A program made the translations under genes and the position numbers. The notes below the pieces were generated by a model. It ran no database searches. It worked only from the letters and a program-made list of their open reading frames with translations, and had not been told where the DNA came from. Shown here piece after piece: positions 1 to 19,270 of a DNA stretch of 30,075 bases. The stretch's first letter is position 1, and each line of letters starts with the position of its first letter. The DNA comes from a virus (taxonomy: Duplodnaviria > Heunggongvirae > Uroviricota > Caudoviricetes). The stretch lies in the IMG/VR virus record IMGVR_UViG_2563366969_000005; one strand, written 5' to 3'.

Positions 1-47
1 CAAAAAAACACAAACCATAAAGACGGCCATAGGTGGTCTTTATGGTT
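1..47 (-). terminator. Putative intrinsic terminator downstream of the C-int operon
   Basis: Perfect 12-bp inverted repeat aaccataaagac (13-24) / gtctttatggtt (36-47) with an 11-nt loop. On the minus strand the hairpin is followed by tgtgttttttt (reverse complement of 1-12). No T-run on the plus strand. Confidence 0.4.
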
Positions 48-116
48 TACAATAGACGCAGCCGTTATTAAATTTAAATCCAACAGCGTTAAAATAAACT
101 AACAATATACGCATAA

Positions 117-1157
117 TTAATCTTTCCATTTAAAACCATTACATAATGTTAAAGGATTAAATGTTACAGCCTCCTCAAGATGATCCGGGGAGAAATGTGC
201 ATACTTCATAGTTTCACGAATATTCGCATGACCGAGTATACGTTGCAGCACAAGAATATTCCCGCCATTCATCATAAAATGAGCGCCGAAGGTATGACGC
301 AGAACGTGTGTCTTTTGCCCTTCCGTCAGTTCGATATCCGTTAGTTTGAGCATCTTTTTAAACTCCTGATAGCAAGGCTTAAACATCTTTCCCTGCCTTT
401 CAGATAATTCGTCATACAACCATTTTGGGATCGGAACGGTTCGATTCTTTTTCCCTTTCGTTTTGGTGAAGGTCAGTTTATGTGGCGAGAGCTGGGGACG
501 TGTCAACCTCTCAGCCTCACCCCATCTAGCACCTGTTGCAAGACAAATCTTAACAATCATGGTGAGGTCTTCTTTTCCGTATTGCTCGCATGCCTGAAAC
601 AATTTCGGAATTTGAGACAAAGTGAGCCAAGACATTTCTTTCTCGGCTTCCTTGAAAACACGGACTCCATCAAGTGGATTTGGTAAGCTCCACTCCCCTA
701 GCCTTTTGAGCTCATTAAATACAGCCTCAAGATATTGTTGCTCACGATTGACAGTTATCGGTTTAGCAATCCATTTTGCCGGGTCTTTATGATAGCCATT
801 ATCTATCTCCCCCCGAAGTCGGCGGTCACGGTAATGAGCCCAATCTTTAGCAGTAAGGCGGGATGCAATAGGGTCGCCAAGTCCATTACACACGATTTGA
901 AGTTTAGCTAACCGCGACTTACTGGCGACCAGTGCCTGTCCGTGTAAATTATGCCAAAGCTGGATAATCTCACTTAAGCGTCGGCGGTCTTCTTTCTTGC
1001 CGAGCCACGGCTTATCCTCACTCTCACTTTTCGTAAATGCTTCGAATGCCTCGGCCTCACCTTTGGTATTGAATTGCCGACGTATACGCCGCCCTTCTCG
1101 ACCATTTGGATAGAGCTCGCATAACCATTTGCCATTTTTTTGCTTACTTACAGTCAT
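117..1157 (-). CDS. int: Phage integrase, tyrosine recombinase (P2 Int-like)
   Basis: 346-aa ORF. The C-terminus carries the tyrosine-recombinase catalytic region (HVLRHTFGAHFMMNGGNILVLQRILGHANIRETMKYAHF). Position downstream of the repressor on the same strand matches the P2 C-int arrangement. Confidence 0.93.
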   Translation of the reverse strand: MTVSKQKNGKWLCELYPNGREGRRIRRQFNTKGEAEAFEAFTKSESEDKPWLGKKEDRRRLSEIIQLWHNLHGQALVASKSRLAKLQIVCNGLGDPIASRLTAKDWAHYRDRRLRGEIDNGYHKDPAKWIAKPITVNREQQYLEAVFNELKRLGEWSLPNPLDGVRVFKEAEKEMSWLTLSQIPKLFQACEQYGKEDLTMIVKICLATGARWGEAERLTRPQLSPHKLTFTKTKGKKNRTVPIPKWLYDELSERQGKMFKPCYQEFKKMLKLTDIELTEGQKTHVLRHTFGAHFMMNGGNILVLQRILGHANIRETMKYAHFSPDHLEEAVTFNPLTLCNGFKWKD

Positions 1158-1179
1158 AATGTCACCGAGGCAACTCTAA

Positions 1180-1518
1180 TTATTCCCAAAGTGCTGTTGC
1201 AGCATCCATTACAGGATCCAAAGGAATTTTTACGCCTGCATACTCCGGGCTATCTTTCCAAACAGTATCAATATTGCTCCCCTCAAGCTTTCCAGACTTT
1301 ACTCCATCAATCGCAAAACCATTTAATGGGTATCGGTCATCTGTTGCTTTGTCGTACACAAAGGCATATTTACCGTTGACACAAGACACCGTAGCTTTTT
1401 CAAAAGTTAACGGCCAATCCTCACCAAACTTAGCGCCATCTAAATCCTGTGTTTTTTCAGCGGCTGAGGCTCCAAAAGAAAGGGTAAGAAGCAGAGCTAA
1501 AAAGAGTTTACATTTCAT
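1180..1518 (-). CDS. Small secreted/periplasmic protein of unknown function (probable moron)
   Basis: Internal ATG at 1518 chosen over the 136-aa ORF-track start. It is preceded by AAGGGA 6-7 nt upstream and starts 8 bp after the repressor stop. N-terminus MKCKLFLALLLTLSFGASAA looks like a signal peptide with an A-S-A cleavage site. Composition is visibly lower in G+C than the flanking int and repressor genes. Confidence 0.65.
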   Translation of the reverse strand: MKCKLFLALLLTLSFGASAAEKTQDLDGAKFGEDWPLTFEKATVSCVNGKYAFVYDKATDDRYPLNGFAIDGVKSGKLEGSNIDTVWKDSPEYAGVKIPLDPVMDAATALWE

Positions 1519-1526
1519 AATGTCCC

Positions 1527-2387
1527 TTACACGTGTTTTTCCAATGTGAAAACTACAGCCCCGGCAGGAGTAATGTCTGTAATGTTGCATTCAAACTCAG
1601 CAGACTTATTTGACAACCTGACTTTTCCACCGGGCAAGCGAATTACATCAAAAACATCAAGAGCGCCGTCGATATCAATTAACCAGCGACCATTACTTAT
1701 ATTCGAAGCAGAACAGTCGACAAGCCAAGAGGCAGCTACACCGTCAACAAAAATCAATTCCCCTGAGTTAGAAGGAATCATTGAGGGGTCAGGATGCCAC
1801 GTTCCTGCATCCTTAAGCTCACCAGATTCAAGACGAGATTTTTTAATAGAAAAACCAGATGTGACATCTTCCCTGTTAGCTCGCATTTGCCCCTTGCCTG
1901 TTGCTAACCATTCCAGTGACGTATCGGTATCAAGAGCGCATGTAACAACAACATCACCAGGGAAAAAATCTCGCCTTACCCATGTGCTAATTGTGCCAGA
2001 GGAAATGCCGAGCAAATCACCGAGCTCCTTTTGCATGGTAAAGCCATACGCATCAAGAATCCTACGCAAAACGGTTTTACCACCATTCGTCATAATCTCG
2101 TCATAAAGCTCTTTGCCTTTTAACTTGCAACTGGCTCGCTCGTGATTTGCATTTGCAAGTTCTCCATTTACAAGCCAATTGATATCAGCTCCCGTGTCAA
2201 GACAACACCTAACTATGACATTGCCAGGTATTGCATCACGCTGAACCCAGCCGCTAACGCTGTGTTTAGCGATACCTAGCAGGTCAGCCAAATCCTTTTG
2301 CATCTTGACCCCATAGGCTGACATTAAGCGTTCCAATACGCCGTTCGTTGCACTAACACGCCACTGAACATCAAGCTCAGAACTCAT
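1527..2387 (-). CDS. Prophage repressor, CI-type, with tandemly duplicated N-terminal HTH domain
   Basis: 286-aa ORF with AGGGG Shine-Dalgarno upstream of the ATG at 2387. Residues about 15-78 and 104-168 are clear paralogous copies (shared motifs AYG..MQK.L.DLLGI, W..RD..PG.V.V.C.LDT, WL..G). Transcribed divergently from the Cox/Apl-CII operon, as expected for the immunity repressor. Confidence 0.85.
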   Translation of the reverse strand: MSSELDVQWRVSATNGVLERLMSAYGVKMQKDLADLLGIAKHSVSGWVQRDAIPGNVIVRCCLDTGADINWLVNGELANANHERASCKLKGKELYDEIMTNGGKTVLRRILDAYGFTMQKELGDLLGISSGTISTWVRRDFFPGDVVVTCALDTDTSLEWLATGKGQMRANREDVTSGFSIKKSRLESGELKDAGTWHPDPSMIPSNSGELIFVDGVAASWLVDCSASNISNGRWLIDIDGALDVFDVIRLPGGKVRLSNKSAEFECNITDITPAGAVVFTLEKHV

Positions 2388-2508
2388 AAAAACCCCTACA
2401 GATAATTTTATGGGTGTTTACAGAAAACTTTTTACGATCTATAGTGGCATTCATCGACCAAGATGCACACCACTGCACTACATTTCAAACAACAGGAGAT
2501 AATGCGAT
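2388..2508. promoter_or_regulatory. Divergent immunity-region promoter/operator interval (lysogenic versus lytic early promoters)
   Basis: 121-bp AT-rich intergenic region between the divergently transcribed repressor and the first early gene. Contains repeated tacag motifs (ctacagataa, ttacagaaaac). Exact operators were not resolved. Confidence 0.5.
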
Positions 2509-2880
2509 ATGTCAGATGCAAAATCAATCTCGACGCACGACTCGCAAAACTCACAAAATCAAACTGTGCTGCTAGATCCAACACAGTTTGATGCCATCGT
2601 TACCGCCATGCTGCCAGCTCTACAGACAATGATTCGCTCCGCTATGTCAGACACGATGACTGTGAAAGACTTCGCCGCTACTCGCGGTGTTAGCGAGCGT
2701 CTGGTCTGGCAATGGCTCGATGAGGGAGTCCTTCTCAAAGCTCCGACCAAAGACTTTTCCAACAAAGAGGAAGCTGCTAAACGAAGCCGAACCCTCGTAA
2801 ACGTAAAAGCATGGCGCGATAAGCTGACTCAACAAGCGATTGATTGTCGCTACATCGACCAGCGCACCGCTCTTAACTGA
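2509..2880 (+). CDS. Cox/Apl-like early regulator, possible excisionase
   Basis: 123-aa ORF, first gene of the lytic early operon, with AGGAGA 9 nt upstream of the ATG. An HTH-like segment (TVKDFAATRGVSERLVWQWLDEG) is present. The role is assigned by position in P2/186-type switches and is not verified. Confidence 0.55.
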   Translation: MSDAKSISTHDSQNSQNQTVLLDPTQFDAIVTAMLPALQTMIRSAMSDTMTVKDFAATRGVSERLVWQWLDEGVLLKAPTKDFSNKEEAAKRSRTLVNVKAWRDKLTQQAIDCRYIDQRTALN

Positions 2881-2912
2881 ATTTGATTATGCAAGTTAGA
2901 GGGAATTTAACC

Positions 2913-3422
2913 ATGTTTGATTTTCAGGTTTCCAAACATCCCCACTATGACGAAGCATGCCGCATTTTCGCACAGCGTCACAATATGGCGAAGCTGGCCG
3001 AGCGTGCAGGTATGAACGTTCAAACGTTACGTAACAAGCTCAACCCGGAACAGCCTCACCAGTTCACGCCGTCTGAATTGTGGCTGCTGACTGACCTGAC
3101 CGAAGACTCAACCCTCATTGATGGTTTTTTAGCGCAGATTCACTGCCTACCATGCGTGCCGGTTAATGAGTTGGCTAAAGACAAATTGCAGTCTTATGTC
3201 ATGCGCGCAATGCGTGAACTCGGCGAACTGGCGAGCGGCGCGGTATCTGATGAACGTCTGACCATTGCCCGTAAGCACAACATGATTGAAAGCGTTAACT
3301 CCGGCATTCGCATGTTGTCATTGTCGGCTCTGGCTCTGCATGCACGTCTGCAGACTAATCCAGCTATGTCGAGCGTGGTCGATACCATGAGCGGTATTGG
3401 CGCATCGTTTGGTCTGATTTGA
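2913..3422 (+). CDS. cII: Phage regulatory protein CII (186 CII / CP76 family)
   Basis: Translation MFDFQVSKHPHYDEACRIFAQRHNMAKLAERAGMNVQTLRNKLNPEQ... matches my recollection of coliphage 186 CII. Start ATG 2913 has AGAGGG 9 nt upstream. The ORF track's longer 2883 start is a TTG with a second ATG at 2889, judged less likely. Confidence 0.85.
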   Translation: MFDFQVSKHPHYDEACRIFAQRHNMAKLAERAGMNVQTLRNKLNPEQPHQFTPSELWLLTDLTEDSTLIDGFLAQIHCLPCVPVNELAKDKLQSYVMRAMRELGELASGAVSDERLTIARKHNMIESVNSGIRMLSLSALALHARLQTNPAMSSVVDTMSGIGASFGLI

Positions 3423-3429
3423 GGTGCGT

Positions 3430-3630
3430 ATGCTGAAAAGTGAACCGTCATTCGCATCTCTGCTCGTTAAGCAAAGCCCCGGCATGCACTACGGCCACGG
3501 CTGGATCGCAGGTAAGGACGGCAAGCGCTGGCACCCGAGCCACTCGCAGGCTGATTTACTGGCTGGCCTCTCTACTCAAAAGCGGGGGGGATCATGGCTA
3601 TCGAAGCTGTTTCCGCGACTGTTCCGCTAA
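3430..3630 (+). CDS. Small early protein, hypothetical (position of 186 fil-like genes)
   Basis: ATG 3430 with GAGG 5 nt upstream, immediately after the CII stop. 66 aa, basic. No recognisable motif. Confidence 0.45.
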   Translation: MLKSEPSFASLLVKQSPGMHYGHGWIAGKDGKRWHPSHSQADLLAGLSTQKRGGSWLSKLFPRLFR

Positions 3631-3932
3631 AAGCGGGTGAACGTCTGGCCGGTCTCAATCATGTTGCCGAATTGCGCGCGAGATATTGGGGCGATAGCTG
3701 GAAAGAGGTTGAACGTTTTGTCGATGATATGCGCGATAAACGTGACCCACAATTTGAAGAAAATAATCGGGCGCTGGCCGCTATTTTCTTTCTGGCAAAA
3801 ATACCGGCGGCTCGTCATGAACTCGAATTAAGTGAGCTGACTACTGACGAGAAAAAGGCGCTTATTACAGCGATGAATCATTTTCGTGCAGTAGTGAGCT
3901 TATTTCCCAAACGGCTAACCATGCCGAATTAA
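3594..3932 (+). CDS. Hypothetical early protein
   Basis: 112-aa ORF. A G-run (GGGGGGG) lies 3 nt upstream of the ATG. Overlaps the previous small gene in another frame, giving operon-like packing. Confidence 0.55.
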   Translation: MAIEAVSATVPLKAGERLAGLNHVAELRARYWGDSWKEVERFVDDMRDKRDPQFEENNRALAAIFFLAKIPAARHELELSELTTDEKKALITAMNHFRAVVSLFPKRLTMPN

Positions 3933-8502: not shown

Positions 8503-9507
8503 CTAATTTACATGTATGTAGAGTTCACCGTCGCCAGACCAATCGGGACACTCTAAAACAAGCCCAAACTGCTTGAATATTTCATCAATGATTATTGTTA
8601 TCTCCCGAAAATCACCAAAACCTGTAATGTGCTGGTCATTAAACTTCCCATAAAGATTCTGAAAAGCAATGCCTAATTCTGATAATTGATATCTTATATT
8701 TGAGTTGGATAGTGTAAGGGATAGCTTTGGATCGTATTCTTTAATATTGATGTTTAGAGAATGGACATAACCCATCGCATAAGCATAAGAGTTGATGATT
8801 AGCCTGATACGTTTTTTTACTTCGAGATACATGTCATTCAGAGAAATATTACCGTACTTATAACCCCAGATGAGTTTTTCAATCTCGTCAGATACTTCAT
8901 TTACAACAGTGTCAAGATTCTCTAAAAATAAATCGATAGTTTCTTGAGGGGCAGACCCCGAAGACATGTAATTAGCGAGATATTCAGACCATGCACGCGT
9001 GGCTGAGATAAGAAGCGCGCTACCATACTCGTTGACTGTAAAGTTTTGGGCTAAGCATGTTAGTAAGTTTTTTTCATGTACGTGCACTAATTCATGGTGA
9101 ATGCGATGGATGACTGCGAGGTATCCTTCTTCTTTCAGTTTTAAGAAGCTACCATCATTGAAAAGCTCAACAAAAAAATCAATCGATAGCACAAGGGTAT
9201 ATTCTTCACATAGCCCATCATTGCCAATTTTTGTTACTAACTGCCCGACGGCTGCGCCCTGTTTGCTATTGGTAAATGAACTAGGGGATTTGTGTTGGTA
9301 AGAGGATGTTACCTTTTGAAGAGCTTCACTGAAGTTATAGGAAACAATCACGCATTTTAATTTGGAGATATCAAGATTGAGATTTTTTGTTAAAGCTCGG
9401 ATAGCTTCTAGTGTGAAATTACCGATATTATTTGCTTCTTGCTCAGTAGCGAAACCTTCGAGGGTTATTTTAAAATCAGTTTCCAAAATATTAATCTCCG
9501 CGCCCAT
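8503..9507 (-). CDS. AT-rich cargo protein of unknown function with His-rich HExxH motif; candidate anti-phage defence or exclusion gene
   Basis: 334-aa ORF, conspicuously AT-rich against a GC-rich backbone. Contains IHRIHHELVHVHEKN (HELVH is an HExxH pattern in a His cluster). Lies between cos and the portal gene, downstream of Q on the same strand. Weak Shine-Dalgarno. No family recognised. Confidence 0.8.
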   Translation of the reverse strand: MGAEINILETDFKITLEGFATEQEANNIGNFTLEAIRALTKNLNLDISKLKCVIVSYNFSEALQKVTSSYQHKSPSSFTNSKQGAAVGQLVTKIGNDGLCEEYTLVLSIDFFVELFNDGSFLKLKEEGYLAVIHRIHHELVHVHEKNLLTCLAQNFTVNEYGSALLISATRAWSEYLANYMSSGSAPQETIDLFLENLDTVVNEVSDEIEKLIWGYKYGNISLNDMYLEVKKRIRLIINSYAYAMGYVHSLNINIKEYDPKLSLTLSNSNIRYQLSELGIAFQNLYGKFNDQHITGFGDFREITIIIDEIFKQFGLVLECPDWSGDGELYIHVN

Positions 9508-18380: not shown

Positions 18381-18442
18381 TAGAGGTGGACTGGTGTCTA
18401 GGTGGGCGTGCCCACTGAGTTGGGTTCGATTCCCTAACCTCG
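18381..18442 (+). other. tRNA-like fragment (T-arm/T-loop GGTTCGATTCC with partial acceptor 3' strand); not an intact tRNA
   Basis: GGTTCGATTCC (18423-18433) is the canonical T-loop consensus, flanked by an imperfect T-stem (TTGGG/CCCTA) and preceded by a short hairpin (GTGGG-CGTG-CCCAC). There is not enough sequence for D and anticodon arms. It overlaps the stop codon of the minus-strand cargo gene. Confidence 0.35.
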
Positions 18443-19270
18443 TATTATTCCTCTCGATATTTTTATTGCTGGGTTTTCCTTTCTTATTTCATTTTTAATT
18501 TGCTCATCACAAATTAAATAATCTATGTTTTTTGCTTTAACAAGTTCTTTAACGCTAATGTTAATTGAATTTAATAGATTTGCATTCCGCATGTTAGCCC
18601 CTTCATAAGTAACGGATTTAAAATCACATCCTTTTAATATGCAGCTTTTCATTTCGCCATCTGTAAAATACCCCCCTTCAAAACTGCAGTTTTCGAAAGT
18701 GACATTTTGAAAACATGTATTAAATGCCTTAATATTTCTTAGCTTGCAGTTTTTGAATTTAACACTCTTAACTCTATTGCCTGTAATATTTAGAGCTTGA
18801 ATTGTGCAATTATCGAAAGAACAATCTCTAATGTATGATTCGCTCATATTCAAGCCGGTTAAGTCAGCGTCTTTAAAATGTAAATATTTGATAGTGGACA
18901 TTTTATCAAGTTCAATCCTTGGAACTTGAATGTTATATATTCCTTTAGCATTTAACTGACGTATGATTTTTATCTTCATAATATTCAGTTCTGCAGAAGA
19001 ATGCTTTGCCAGATTTTCAAGATCTTCAATTAGTTCGTGAATAGCATCTTTATTTTGCCTTTTATTTTCAAAATAGTAAAGAATCACACCCAAAACAAGA
19101 AAGTCTAAAATTGAAGAATTTGCATTAACAAGAAAATTCTCCATGAATTTTGAGTTGTAGTTATCATTATAAACAGACAACCCTACTATAAGCCCGGAGT
19201 ATAAAAAAAAGATACCTATAATATATTTCATATTGCTTATTGTACGCCTAAAAGATGAAGTTCTTTTCAT
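18434..19270 (-). CDS. AT-rich membrane-anchored pentapeptide-repeat protein (cargo gene between S and V)
   Basis: Start chosen at MKRTSSF... (ATG at 19270, GGCAGGTAG upstream); the ORF-track start is 19315. Two hydrophobic helices (YIIGIFFLYSGLIVGLSVY, ILDFLVLGVILYYF) are followed by repeats of the pentapeptide type (ADLTGLNMSES, CSFDNCTIQALNITGNRVKSVKFKNCKLRNIKAFNTCFQNVTFENCSFEG...). Very AT-rich compared with its neighbours. Confidence 0.8.
   Translation of the reverse strand: MKRTSSFRRTISNMKYIIGIFFLYSGLIVGLSVYNDNYNSKFMENFLVNANSSILDFLVLGVILYYFENKRQNKDAIHELIEDLENLAKHSSAELNIMKIKIIRQLNAKGIYNIQVPRIELDKMSTIKYLHFKDADLTGLNMSESYIRDCSFDNCTIQALNITGNRVKSVKFKNCKLRNIKAFNTCFQNVTFENCSFEGGYFTDGEMKSCILKGCDFKSVTYEGANMRNANLLNSINISVKELVKAKNIDYLICDEQIKNEIRKENPAIKISRGIIRG

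Follow-up and report, generated by a model that had tools for sequence, protein, structure and literature searches.

A predicted periplasmic DUF2511 protein as probable exchangeable cargo between cI and int of a 186/PSP3-type prophage

Phage PSP3 encodes, between its immunity repressor gene cI and its integrase gene int, a small protein, gp28 (orf28; NP_958085.1), that RefSeq annotates as a DUF2511 domain-containing protein and whose homologue in phage Midge is recorded as a "putative periplasmic protein". DUF2511 genes between a XerD-type recombinase gene and a phage CI repressor gene have also been recorded in Enterobacteriaceae (PMC8689200). Here we describe the corresponding gene in IMG/VR virus record IMGVR_UViG_2563366969_000005, a stretch of 30,075 nucleotides (nt) that is called the window throughout. 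Its 112-residue open reading frame (ORF) lies in the same cI–int slot with the same spacing, and its product is 92% identical to gp28 over 112 amino acids; gp28 ends in ...ALCE, which includes a disulfide cysteine, whereas the window protein ends in ...ALWE, and the signal peptides differ at several residues. Neither the gene nor its family, fold or cI–int context is new to databases and the literature. What we add is a census of this slot across PSP3/186-like coliphages, along with the finding that a widespread allele, of which a frameshifted derivative exists, has lost the disulfide cysteine.

Two further proteins share the family or the fold. Escherichia coli YebY (Protein Data Bank, PDB, entry 7N0J), encoded third in the copper operon yobA-yebZ-yebY, shares its Pfam family, approximate length, Sec signal peptide, alpha/beta fold and W...C...Y-P-L-N motifs with the window protein. 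It is, however, only about 29% identical, and the window gene is phage-borne, has no copC/copD partners and encodes no equivalent of YebY Cys113. MlbQ (2MVO/6QFP), a Microbispora lipoprotein for self-resistance to the lantibiotic NAI-107, has the same fold (probability 1.00, template-modelling (TM) score about 0.55) and is likewise extracytoplasmic, with ligand binding proposed to occur outside the cytoplasm (PMC8689200), but it differs in its 21% identity, its long linker and lipid anchor, its Gram-positive host and its ATP-binding cassette (ABC) transporter neighbors. In terms of position, the likeness is to Glo of the P2-family Vibrio phage K139 (NP_536629.1), a 137-residue, 13.6-kDa protein with a signal peptide that is encoded in the cI–int slot of the PL operon and annotated in GenBank as "periplasmic protein; involved in phage exclusion". 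In the record of K139, the lysogenic PL operon is given as cI-orf2-glo-int, such that orf2 shares the slot with glo.

A prophage of the P2 family and the 186/PSP3 type (genus Eganvirus), the window matches at 100% identity one that E. coli FDAARGOS_1253 carries between rplS and yfiB. We consider the best overall explanation of the ORF, with a probability of roughly 50%, to be that it specifies an exported DUF2511 protein of the PSP3 gp28 type, carried as cargo, made in the lysogen and protective at the envelope. The cI gene, the ORF and int form a head-to-tail trio on one strand, with the following features.

1527..2387, minus strand: cI immunity repressor gene, 286 amino acids (PF07022 in two stretches, E = 1.3e-52; PF16452, E = 1e-20)
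1519..1528, minus strand: cI/ORF junction, with the Shine-Dalgarno sequence AAGGGA (1528-1523) over the cI stop, then CATT and the ATG (1518-1516)
1518..1180, minus strand: the ORF, 112 amino acids plus stop; RefSeq has the identical coding sequence as a DUF2511 domain-containing protein
1462..1518, minus strand: predicted signal peptide, residues 1-19, MKCKLFLALLLTLSFGASA (hydropathy, -3/-1 rule)
1180..1461, minus strand: mature DUF2511/YebY-fold domain, residues 20-112 plus the stop at 1182-1180 (Pfam PF10709, fold matches)
1158..1179, minus strand: ORF-to-int spacer of 22 nt with no terminator (sequence, terminator scan); 22 nt in relatives too
117..1157, minus strand: tyrosine integrase gene int, 346 amino acids, ATG at 1157 (Pfam Int_N and Phage_integrase); last gene of the probable lysogenic operon

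The minus strand that follows the cI stop codon TAA (1529-1527) reads TAAGGGACATTATG, and the gap from that stop to the ATG of the ORF is 8 nt; a gap of 8-9 nt is found in essentially all DUF2511-bearing loci. The original prediction, which had described a 112-residue secreted protein lying 8 bp after the repressor gene on the same strand, was thus accurate in position, length, strand and spacing, as read from the sequence and its ORFs. A longer, 136-residue product starting at the ATG at 1590 was rejected: that start overlaps cI out of frame and has no Shine-Dalgarno sequence, and the homologues and RefSeq begin at 1518. The window CI is 98% identical to PSP3 CI. It contains tandem Phage_CI_repr helix-turn-helix domains (approximately residues 13-75 and 106-169) followed by a CI C-terminal domain; PSP3 CI has the same two-domain form, whereas CI of phage 186 is 192 residues long with one helix-turn-helix. 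The CI proteins of the surveyed relatives can be aligned only from residue 9-18 onward, which suggests variable N termini.

The ORF is, by comparison with its relatives, a genuine gene under selection; its product is orthologous to PSP3 gp28 and belongs to DUF2511, the family with the YebY/MlbQ fold. The protein matches the Pfam DUF2511 profile over positions 5-86 of 87 (E = 4.5e-16; 59.5 bits, cut-off 21) and phrog_2950 over all 112 positions (E = 1.3e-51), and the ratio of nonsynonymous to synonymous divergence (dN/dS) against relatives is 0.09-0.23; these matches and ratios led us to reject a chance ORF. No match was obtained in NCBIfam. The identical protein is present on at least 1000 contigs in public data, and the same gene is carried by phages PSP3, SEN1, Midge, vB_EcoM-613R3, SW9, SI22 and RCIP0057. 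Carriage on plasmids was rejected, as the sole matches were multi-megabase records that are in fact chromosomes. A scan of one genome per species returned 2 loci.

The homology and structure searches that had been called for in the original prediction assigned the protein to DUF2511 by profile and pointed to YebY and MlbQ by Foldseek. By sequence, the sole match in the PDB is YebY (7N0J; E = 3.4e-6). An AlphaFold2 model was built from a shallow 16-sequence alignment and is of moderate quality (predicted local distance difference test score, pLDDT, 66), a limit set by a protein search that gave just 18 matches, all from a tight phage clade. With this model as the query, the sole significant Foldseek matches in the PDB were YebY chains (E 1.6e-5 to 4.6e-4; TM 0.62/0.71), followed by MlbQ (2MVO and 6QFP) at a probability of 1.00. 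A profile search of 1.84 billion cluster representatives retrieved 770 relatives at E ≤ 1e-3; a single one of these lies at E ≤ 1e-30, and the phage clade is therefore one compact subfamily. In an alignment of 148 family representatives, the hallmark residues Trp35 (148 of 148), Tyr63 (145), Asn66 (143), Gly67 (142), Trp87 (140) and Pro91 (136) are highly conserved, and all six are present in the window protein.

The DUF2511 representatives include lipoprotein, membrane-anchored, zinc-ribbon-fused and tandem-repeat forms, one of which has three domains. A PHROGs scan of 147 representatives identified phrog_2950 as the sole shared family. Two representatives also match phrog_4980, "superinfection exclusion", weakly (E = 1.9e-4), probably via N-terminal extensions.

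The signal peptide proposed originally is present by rule-based features, namely charge, hydropathy and the residues at positions -3 and -1. The n-region is MKCK (charge +2); the hydrophobic h-region comprises 11 residues (L5-F15; top 9-residue hydropathy 2.97), a core too short to anchor the protein in a membrane; and A-S-A at -3 to -1 leads to a predicted cleavage past Ala19. All 46 distinct slot alleles examined have a signal peptide, approximately 19 residues long (19-22 in the extracted sequences). Each of these begins with 1-3 Lys/Arg and has small residues at -1 and -3 (with one Ile at -3), and the cleavage site is followed by A-E/D-K/N, near-invariantly A-E-K, while the sequence of the hydrophobic core has drifted. 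Retention of the property without the sequence is the pattern expected of a functional signal peptide. Residue Cys3 (codon 1512-1510) is replaced by Arg, His or Gly in the nearest alleles. No cysteine occurs at the cleavage site (c-region FGASA/AEK), and thus no lipobox, in any examined slot allele; in this respect the window protein differs from the Cor/Llp-type exclusion lipoproteins, which have a lipobox Cys at +1. Among relatives, experiments have placed YebY in the periplasm, and signal peptides are predicted for most of the family (PMC8689200).

The surroundings of the gene were compared in 80 IMG/VR loci with the integrases most similar to that of the window (82-100% identity). The cI–int slot of these loci is occupied as follows.

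DUF2511 alone: 53/80 loci
DUF2511 plus a bPH_3+SHOCT protein: 3/80 loci
DUF2511 plus a 134-residue secreted protein: 1/80 loci
134-residue secreted protein alone: 3/80 loci
187-residue transmembrane+WYL protein: 5/80 loci
bPH_3+SHOCT protein alone: 1/80 loci
empty (2-76 nt): 14/80 loci

DUF2511 is therefore found in 57 of the 80 loci (71%); 14 slots are empty and 9 hold other genes only. In phage 186, cI abuts int and the slot is likewise empty, in contrast to the window. In the complete genome of E. coli E21, the gene for the 134-residue secreted protein (3386-3790 of the extracted locus) replaces DUF2511 and adjoins a 94%-identical int. Pfam backs the WYL, bPH_3 and SHOCT assignments of the alternative occupants. 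The secreted protein (130-134 residues) is without a Pfam match, the WYL protein (187 residues) has N-terminal transmembrane helices, and the bPH_3+SHOCT protein is 166-170 residues long; PADLOC gave no matches to this alternative cargo except generic WYL models. Conversely, when DUF2511 was the query, the gene was located between cI and int in 65 of 65 IMG/VR loci.

The alleles themselves are also mobile relative to their neighbors. DUF2511 alleles are 46-100% identical, while int is 92-95% identical. Pairwise divergence of DUF2511 shows a weak correlation with that of cI (rho 0.36) and int (rho 0.28), against a rho of 0.66 for the latter two with each other; the same DUF2511 is paired with a cI more than 20% different in 43 pairs, and the reverse pattern is seen in 25 pairs. 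By these comparisons, DUF2511 alleles reassort without regard to either flanking gene. Between the window and PSP3, synonymous divergence (dS) is 0.09 for cI and 0.17 for DUF2511, whereas the int of PSP3 is a different allele with saturated dS (90% amino acid identity); a recombination breakpoint between the ORF and int is indicated by this contrast. Taken as sequence comparisons, these results support the view that the gene is an exchangeable cassette, dispensable cargo in the lysogenic operon, rather than a fixed part of the integrase operon.

A role of the ORF in the lysogeny machinery itself, for example in Int expression or in the coupling of cI to int, is highly improbable. The fixed spacing in all carriers (8-9 nt before the ORF and 22 nt after it) and the presence of the ORF in 71% of the closest relatives would fit such a role, but the empty slots of 14 of the 80 loci and of phage 186, the unrelated genes in 9 others, and an exported product that would be unable to act on DNA or on Int all argue for optional cargo instead.

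The base composition of the ORF does not set it apart from its neighbors. The content of guanine plus cytosine (G+C) is 41.9% in the ORF, 44.8% in int and 45.2% in cI (flanks combined, 45.0%), and at third codon positions 31.9%, 42.7% and 39.4%, respectively (flanks combined, 41.2%); by Fisher's exact test, the dip relative to the flanks is not significant for all positions (p = 0.31) or for third positions (p = 0.076). The compositional contrast is that of the whole lysogeny module with the rest of the prophage: the int-ORF-cI module (117-2387) has 44.5% G+C and the remainder of the window (2401-30075) 53.1%. The lower G+C on which the original prediction had drawn is hence nominal only. That prediction had also listed matching composition and conservation in all relatives as features of a fixed part of the integrase operon, and had proposed a comparison of the C–int junction among related prophages; the composition does match, whereas the census shows an ORF that not every relative carries. 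Its description of the gene as a typical moron holds insofar as the ORF is optional cargo between conserved neighbors, but not in the sense of a unit with a promoter or terminator of its own. The comparisons favour its view of an accessory, exported product made in the lysogen; the roles that it had offered for such genes, namely exclusion, periplasmic immunity or fitness, are hypothetical here.

The transcription signals around the trio were located by scans of the window and are listed below.

2499..2527, minus strand: candidate pL, TTGATT-17-CATTAT (relaxed hexamer scan, 8/12 consensus), overlapping the start of the apl/cox-like gene
2417..2445, plus strand: candidate early lytic promoter pR, TTTACA-17-TATAGT (promoter scan, 10/12 consensus), facing pL
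1..48, minus strand: strong intrinsic terminator at the end of the probable lysogenic operon, with a 14-bp stem (12-48) and then GUGUUUUUUUG (U-run)

The -10 element of the candidate pL sits 5-10 nt upstream of the apl-like ATG (2509) and its -35 element 13-18 nt within that gene. The annotated pL of phage 186 shares this geometry relative to apl, and the pR of 186, between cI and apl, has the same placement as the candidate pR here. By this analogy, we infer that 2499..2527 is the lysogenic promoter pL. The RNA of positions 1-125 (minus strand), which includes the int terminator, folds at -29.1 kcal/mol (z = -3.2), and the terminator scan identified no terminator-like structure in the 8-nt or the 22-nt gap. 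The sole candidate for a promoter of the ORF's own (1544-1517) was rejected because its -10 element covers the ATG. In the GenBank records of phage 186 and K139, the annotated pL lysogenic transcript covers cI and int. Given these annotations and the lack of a terminator before the ORF, cotranscription of the ORF with cI in the lysogen is a sound inference by analogy, in line with the placement within the repressor operon first proposed for it. Rfam and tRNA scans of the window returned no matches. The gene at the apl/cox position (2509-2880, plus strand; 123 amino acids) has no Pfam match, which fits the description of the PSP3 Cox/Apl analogue as a singleton (PMC3448106); the record of phage Midge terms the gene at this position a Cox-like repressor on HHpred evidence.

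In the mechanism that we propose, the ORF would be transcribed together with cI and int from pL, and also from a CII-dependent establishment promoter, such that its product would be made in the lysogen. Translation would start from the ORF's own Shine-Dalgarno sequence, which overlaps the cI stop. The product would be exported by Sec and cleaved past Ala19 to yield a 93-residue soluble periplasmic alpha/beta protein, and this protein may bind or block at the envelope and so protect the lysogen.

Genomic location has been a better guide than distant homology to the function of prophage cargo, and the other occupants of the slot (the secreted 134-residue protein, the transmembrane+WYL protein and the bPH_3+SHOCT protein) are envelope-targeted or defence-like; an envelope-protective role is therefore ranked first, followed by copper modulation and then by peptide immunity. 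Envelope protection, most likely by superinfection exclusion after adsorption, is nonetheless a tentative assignment by analogy that we hold at somewhat less than even odds. The analogue Glo reportedly blocks infection at an early step. Rousset et al. describe a defence hotspot between cI and int in Vibrio phages of the K139 type (PMC9122126).

Several observations weigh against an envelope-protective cargo gene. Transcription from pL is carried over from homologous phages. BLASTP gave no alignment between Glo and the window protein at E ≤ 100, nor was homology found between Glo and the 134-residue alternative cargo; with no detectable sequence similarity, Glo is an analogue and not a homologue. 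No defence family of PADLOC-DB 2.0 matches the ORF at E ≤ 0.01, literature searches returned no phenotype data for the phage protein, and phrog_2950 is labelled "unknown function". No arms race is apparent from the whole-gene dN/dS. Of 50,697 phage records, just ten, all PSP3-like and representing seven phages, contain DUF2511, and two distant DUF2511 queries recovered the same ten only, which is not the distribution of a widespread phage weapon. The studied family members, YebY (copper) and MlbQ (lantibiotic), suggest other roles, and the state of the cysteine pair, taken up below, must be added to this side.

The first of these other roles is a YebY-like conversion of the host's copper handling, in which the phage protein would damp copper import by YebZ/YobA, thereby changing the copper load of the lysogen and its mar-dependent tolerance of antibiotics. 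The Pfam family and fold are shared with YebY, copper accumulation through YebZ falls when YebY is coexpressed, and activation of mar has been linked to the yobA-yebZ-yebY (AZY) operon (PMC11923076); because enterobacterial hosts carry AZY, the partners would be present. Those hosts, however, own a yebY already, identity to YebY is about 29%, and in 65 of 65 loci the phage gene lies between cI and int, never beside copC/copD homologues. Copper binding by YebY moreover required a reduced Cys pair (PMC8689200), and the mature window protein has one Cys. We regard copper conversion as unlikely.

The second would have the protein sequester an antimicrobial peptide in the periplasm, be it a bacteriocin, a microcin or a lantibiotic-like compound, and thereby guard the lysogen from competitors, as the fold of MlbQ, recovered with the AlphaFold2 model at a Foldseek probability of 1.00, might be taken to imply. 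MlbQ has been proposed to confer self-resistance by direct binding of NAI-107 (PMC8689200), and the constitutive low-level expression of a lysogenic operon would suit an immunity protein. Yet identity is 21%, MlbQ is an actinomycete lipoprotein encoded with ABC transporters, and the window protein, with its mature start AEK, lacks a lipobox; no transporter or bacteriocin gene lies near the ORF, and no candidate ligand is known in Enterobacteria. Peptide immunity is accordingly more improbable still than a copper role. A broader proposal, that one P2/186-type lineage captured the YebY fold as a new lysogenic-conversion factor made from the immunity operon, either a soluble periplasmic blocker of phage DNA entry that resembles no known exclusion protein or a copper/mar regulator, is rather speculative and would be somewhat surprising if it proved correct. 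In that event, the phage context would provide the first clean genetic handle on what the DUF2511 family binds.

The window copy has lost a disulfide cysteine that is nearly universal in the family. In YebY, Cys48 and Cys113 form a disulfide, reduction of which lowers the melting temperature by about 5 degrees; the pair has been termed strictly conserved (PMC8689200). Here, Cys46 is present, and the C-terminal partner is replaced by Trp111, whose codon TGG (1188-1186) is one base from TGT/TGC. In the 148 family representatives, column 46 is Cys in 147 and column 111 in 142. Among 47 distinct slot alleles drawn from 120 loci, the C-terminal Cys is kept in 46, which end in ...LC-x, and the window allele is the sole exception. 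The window protein is thus a DUF2511 member minus one hallmark, and its membership by profile and fold stands.

The Trp allele is found exactly in 12 E. coli complete genomes, and a second Trp allele (P0001) differs from it at two other residues. Of the 19 E. coli complete genomes with the Trp allele, 7 carry a 10-nt deletion, GATACCCATT, by which the R-Y-P-L codons are lost and the frame is shifted. These exact copies, the second allele and the deletion-bearing genomes together argue that the Trp codon is not a sequencing error. One deletion carrier (Ecol_545) is annotated with a frameshifted pseudogene (581-909 of the extracted locus), and its cI and int proteins are identical to those of the window. 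No change in length is seen in 25 further alleles from that search, as judged without individual translation. A single event probably accounts for the deletion, so that any statistics on decay are weak; the direction fits relaxed constraint on the Trp allele.

Replacement of either Cys in YebY abolished expression of the protein (PMC8689200), and this result and the deletion both count against an active product here; the Trp111 copy may be destabilized, inactive or impaired. A further explanation is accordingly that the gene of this lineage is a decaying passenger, in which C111W removed the disulfide and left an unstable or inactive protein, the ORF being retained because it is young and sits in an essential operon; this would be compatible with any ancestral function. 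The conservation of Cys111, from which the window allele alone deviates among the slot alleles, the YebY replacements and the 7 deletion-bearing genomes all speak for decay. On the other side, the exact protein is on at least 1000 contigs and a second Trp allele exists, so that the Trp form has lasted and become widespread; C111W aside, the mature protein is one residue off the nearest Cys allele; the frameshift is one event and possibly clonal; and column 111 is also without Cys in 6 of the 148 family representatives. Decay is a possibility to be taken seriously for this copy, though we think it rather doubtful.

The cI–int junction of PSP3/186-like coliphages emerges as a small slot in which at least four kinds of cargo alternate, which extends the description of K139-like vibriophages to enterobacterial phages. 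DUF2511/YebY is widespread (770 representatives), with a molecular role placed between copper handling and peptide-antibiotic binding, and its carriage by phages in the one operon that every lysogen expresses suggests that the fold alone gives an envelope-level benefit without copper partners. Isogenic lysogens with and without the gene, or with Cys and Trp alleles, make the system a convenient one for finding the ligand. The practical message for the window itself is modest: the ORF is an annotated member of a known family, and this copy may be impaired.

Further accessory genes were noted in and beside the prophage. A pentapeptide-repeat gene (18434-19270, minus strand; 278 amino acids) lies on the opposite strand amid baseplate and tail genes, in the accessory position of the P2 Z/fun type, and its product has a weak SLATT-like PADLOC match only (E = 0.0027). 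In the window, a gene for a 334-residue protein (8503-9507, minus strand) with no Pfam or PADLOC match, joined by small hypothetical genes and a DinI-family gene (to approximately 10,600), lies in the interval from replication gene A to the portal gene, where P2-like phages have their main known defence hotspot.

Just outside position 1 (2392-3201 of the flanking record), a hypothetical gene of 269 amino acids, convergent with int, is situated between the int terminator and yfiB. E. coli E21, in which int is about 170 bp from yfiB, lacks it. The gene has a weak HEPN-like PADLOC match (E = 1.2e-4) and may be cargo of the int-att hotspot described in PMC13586616.

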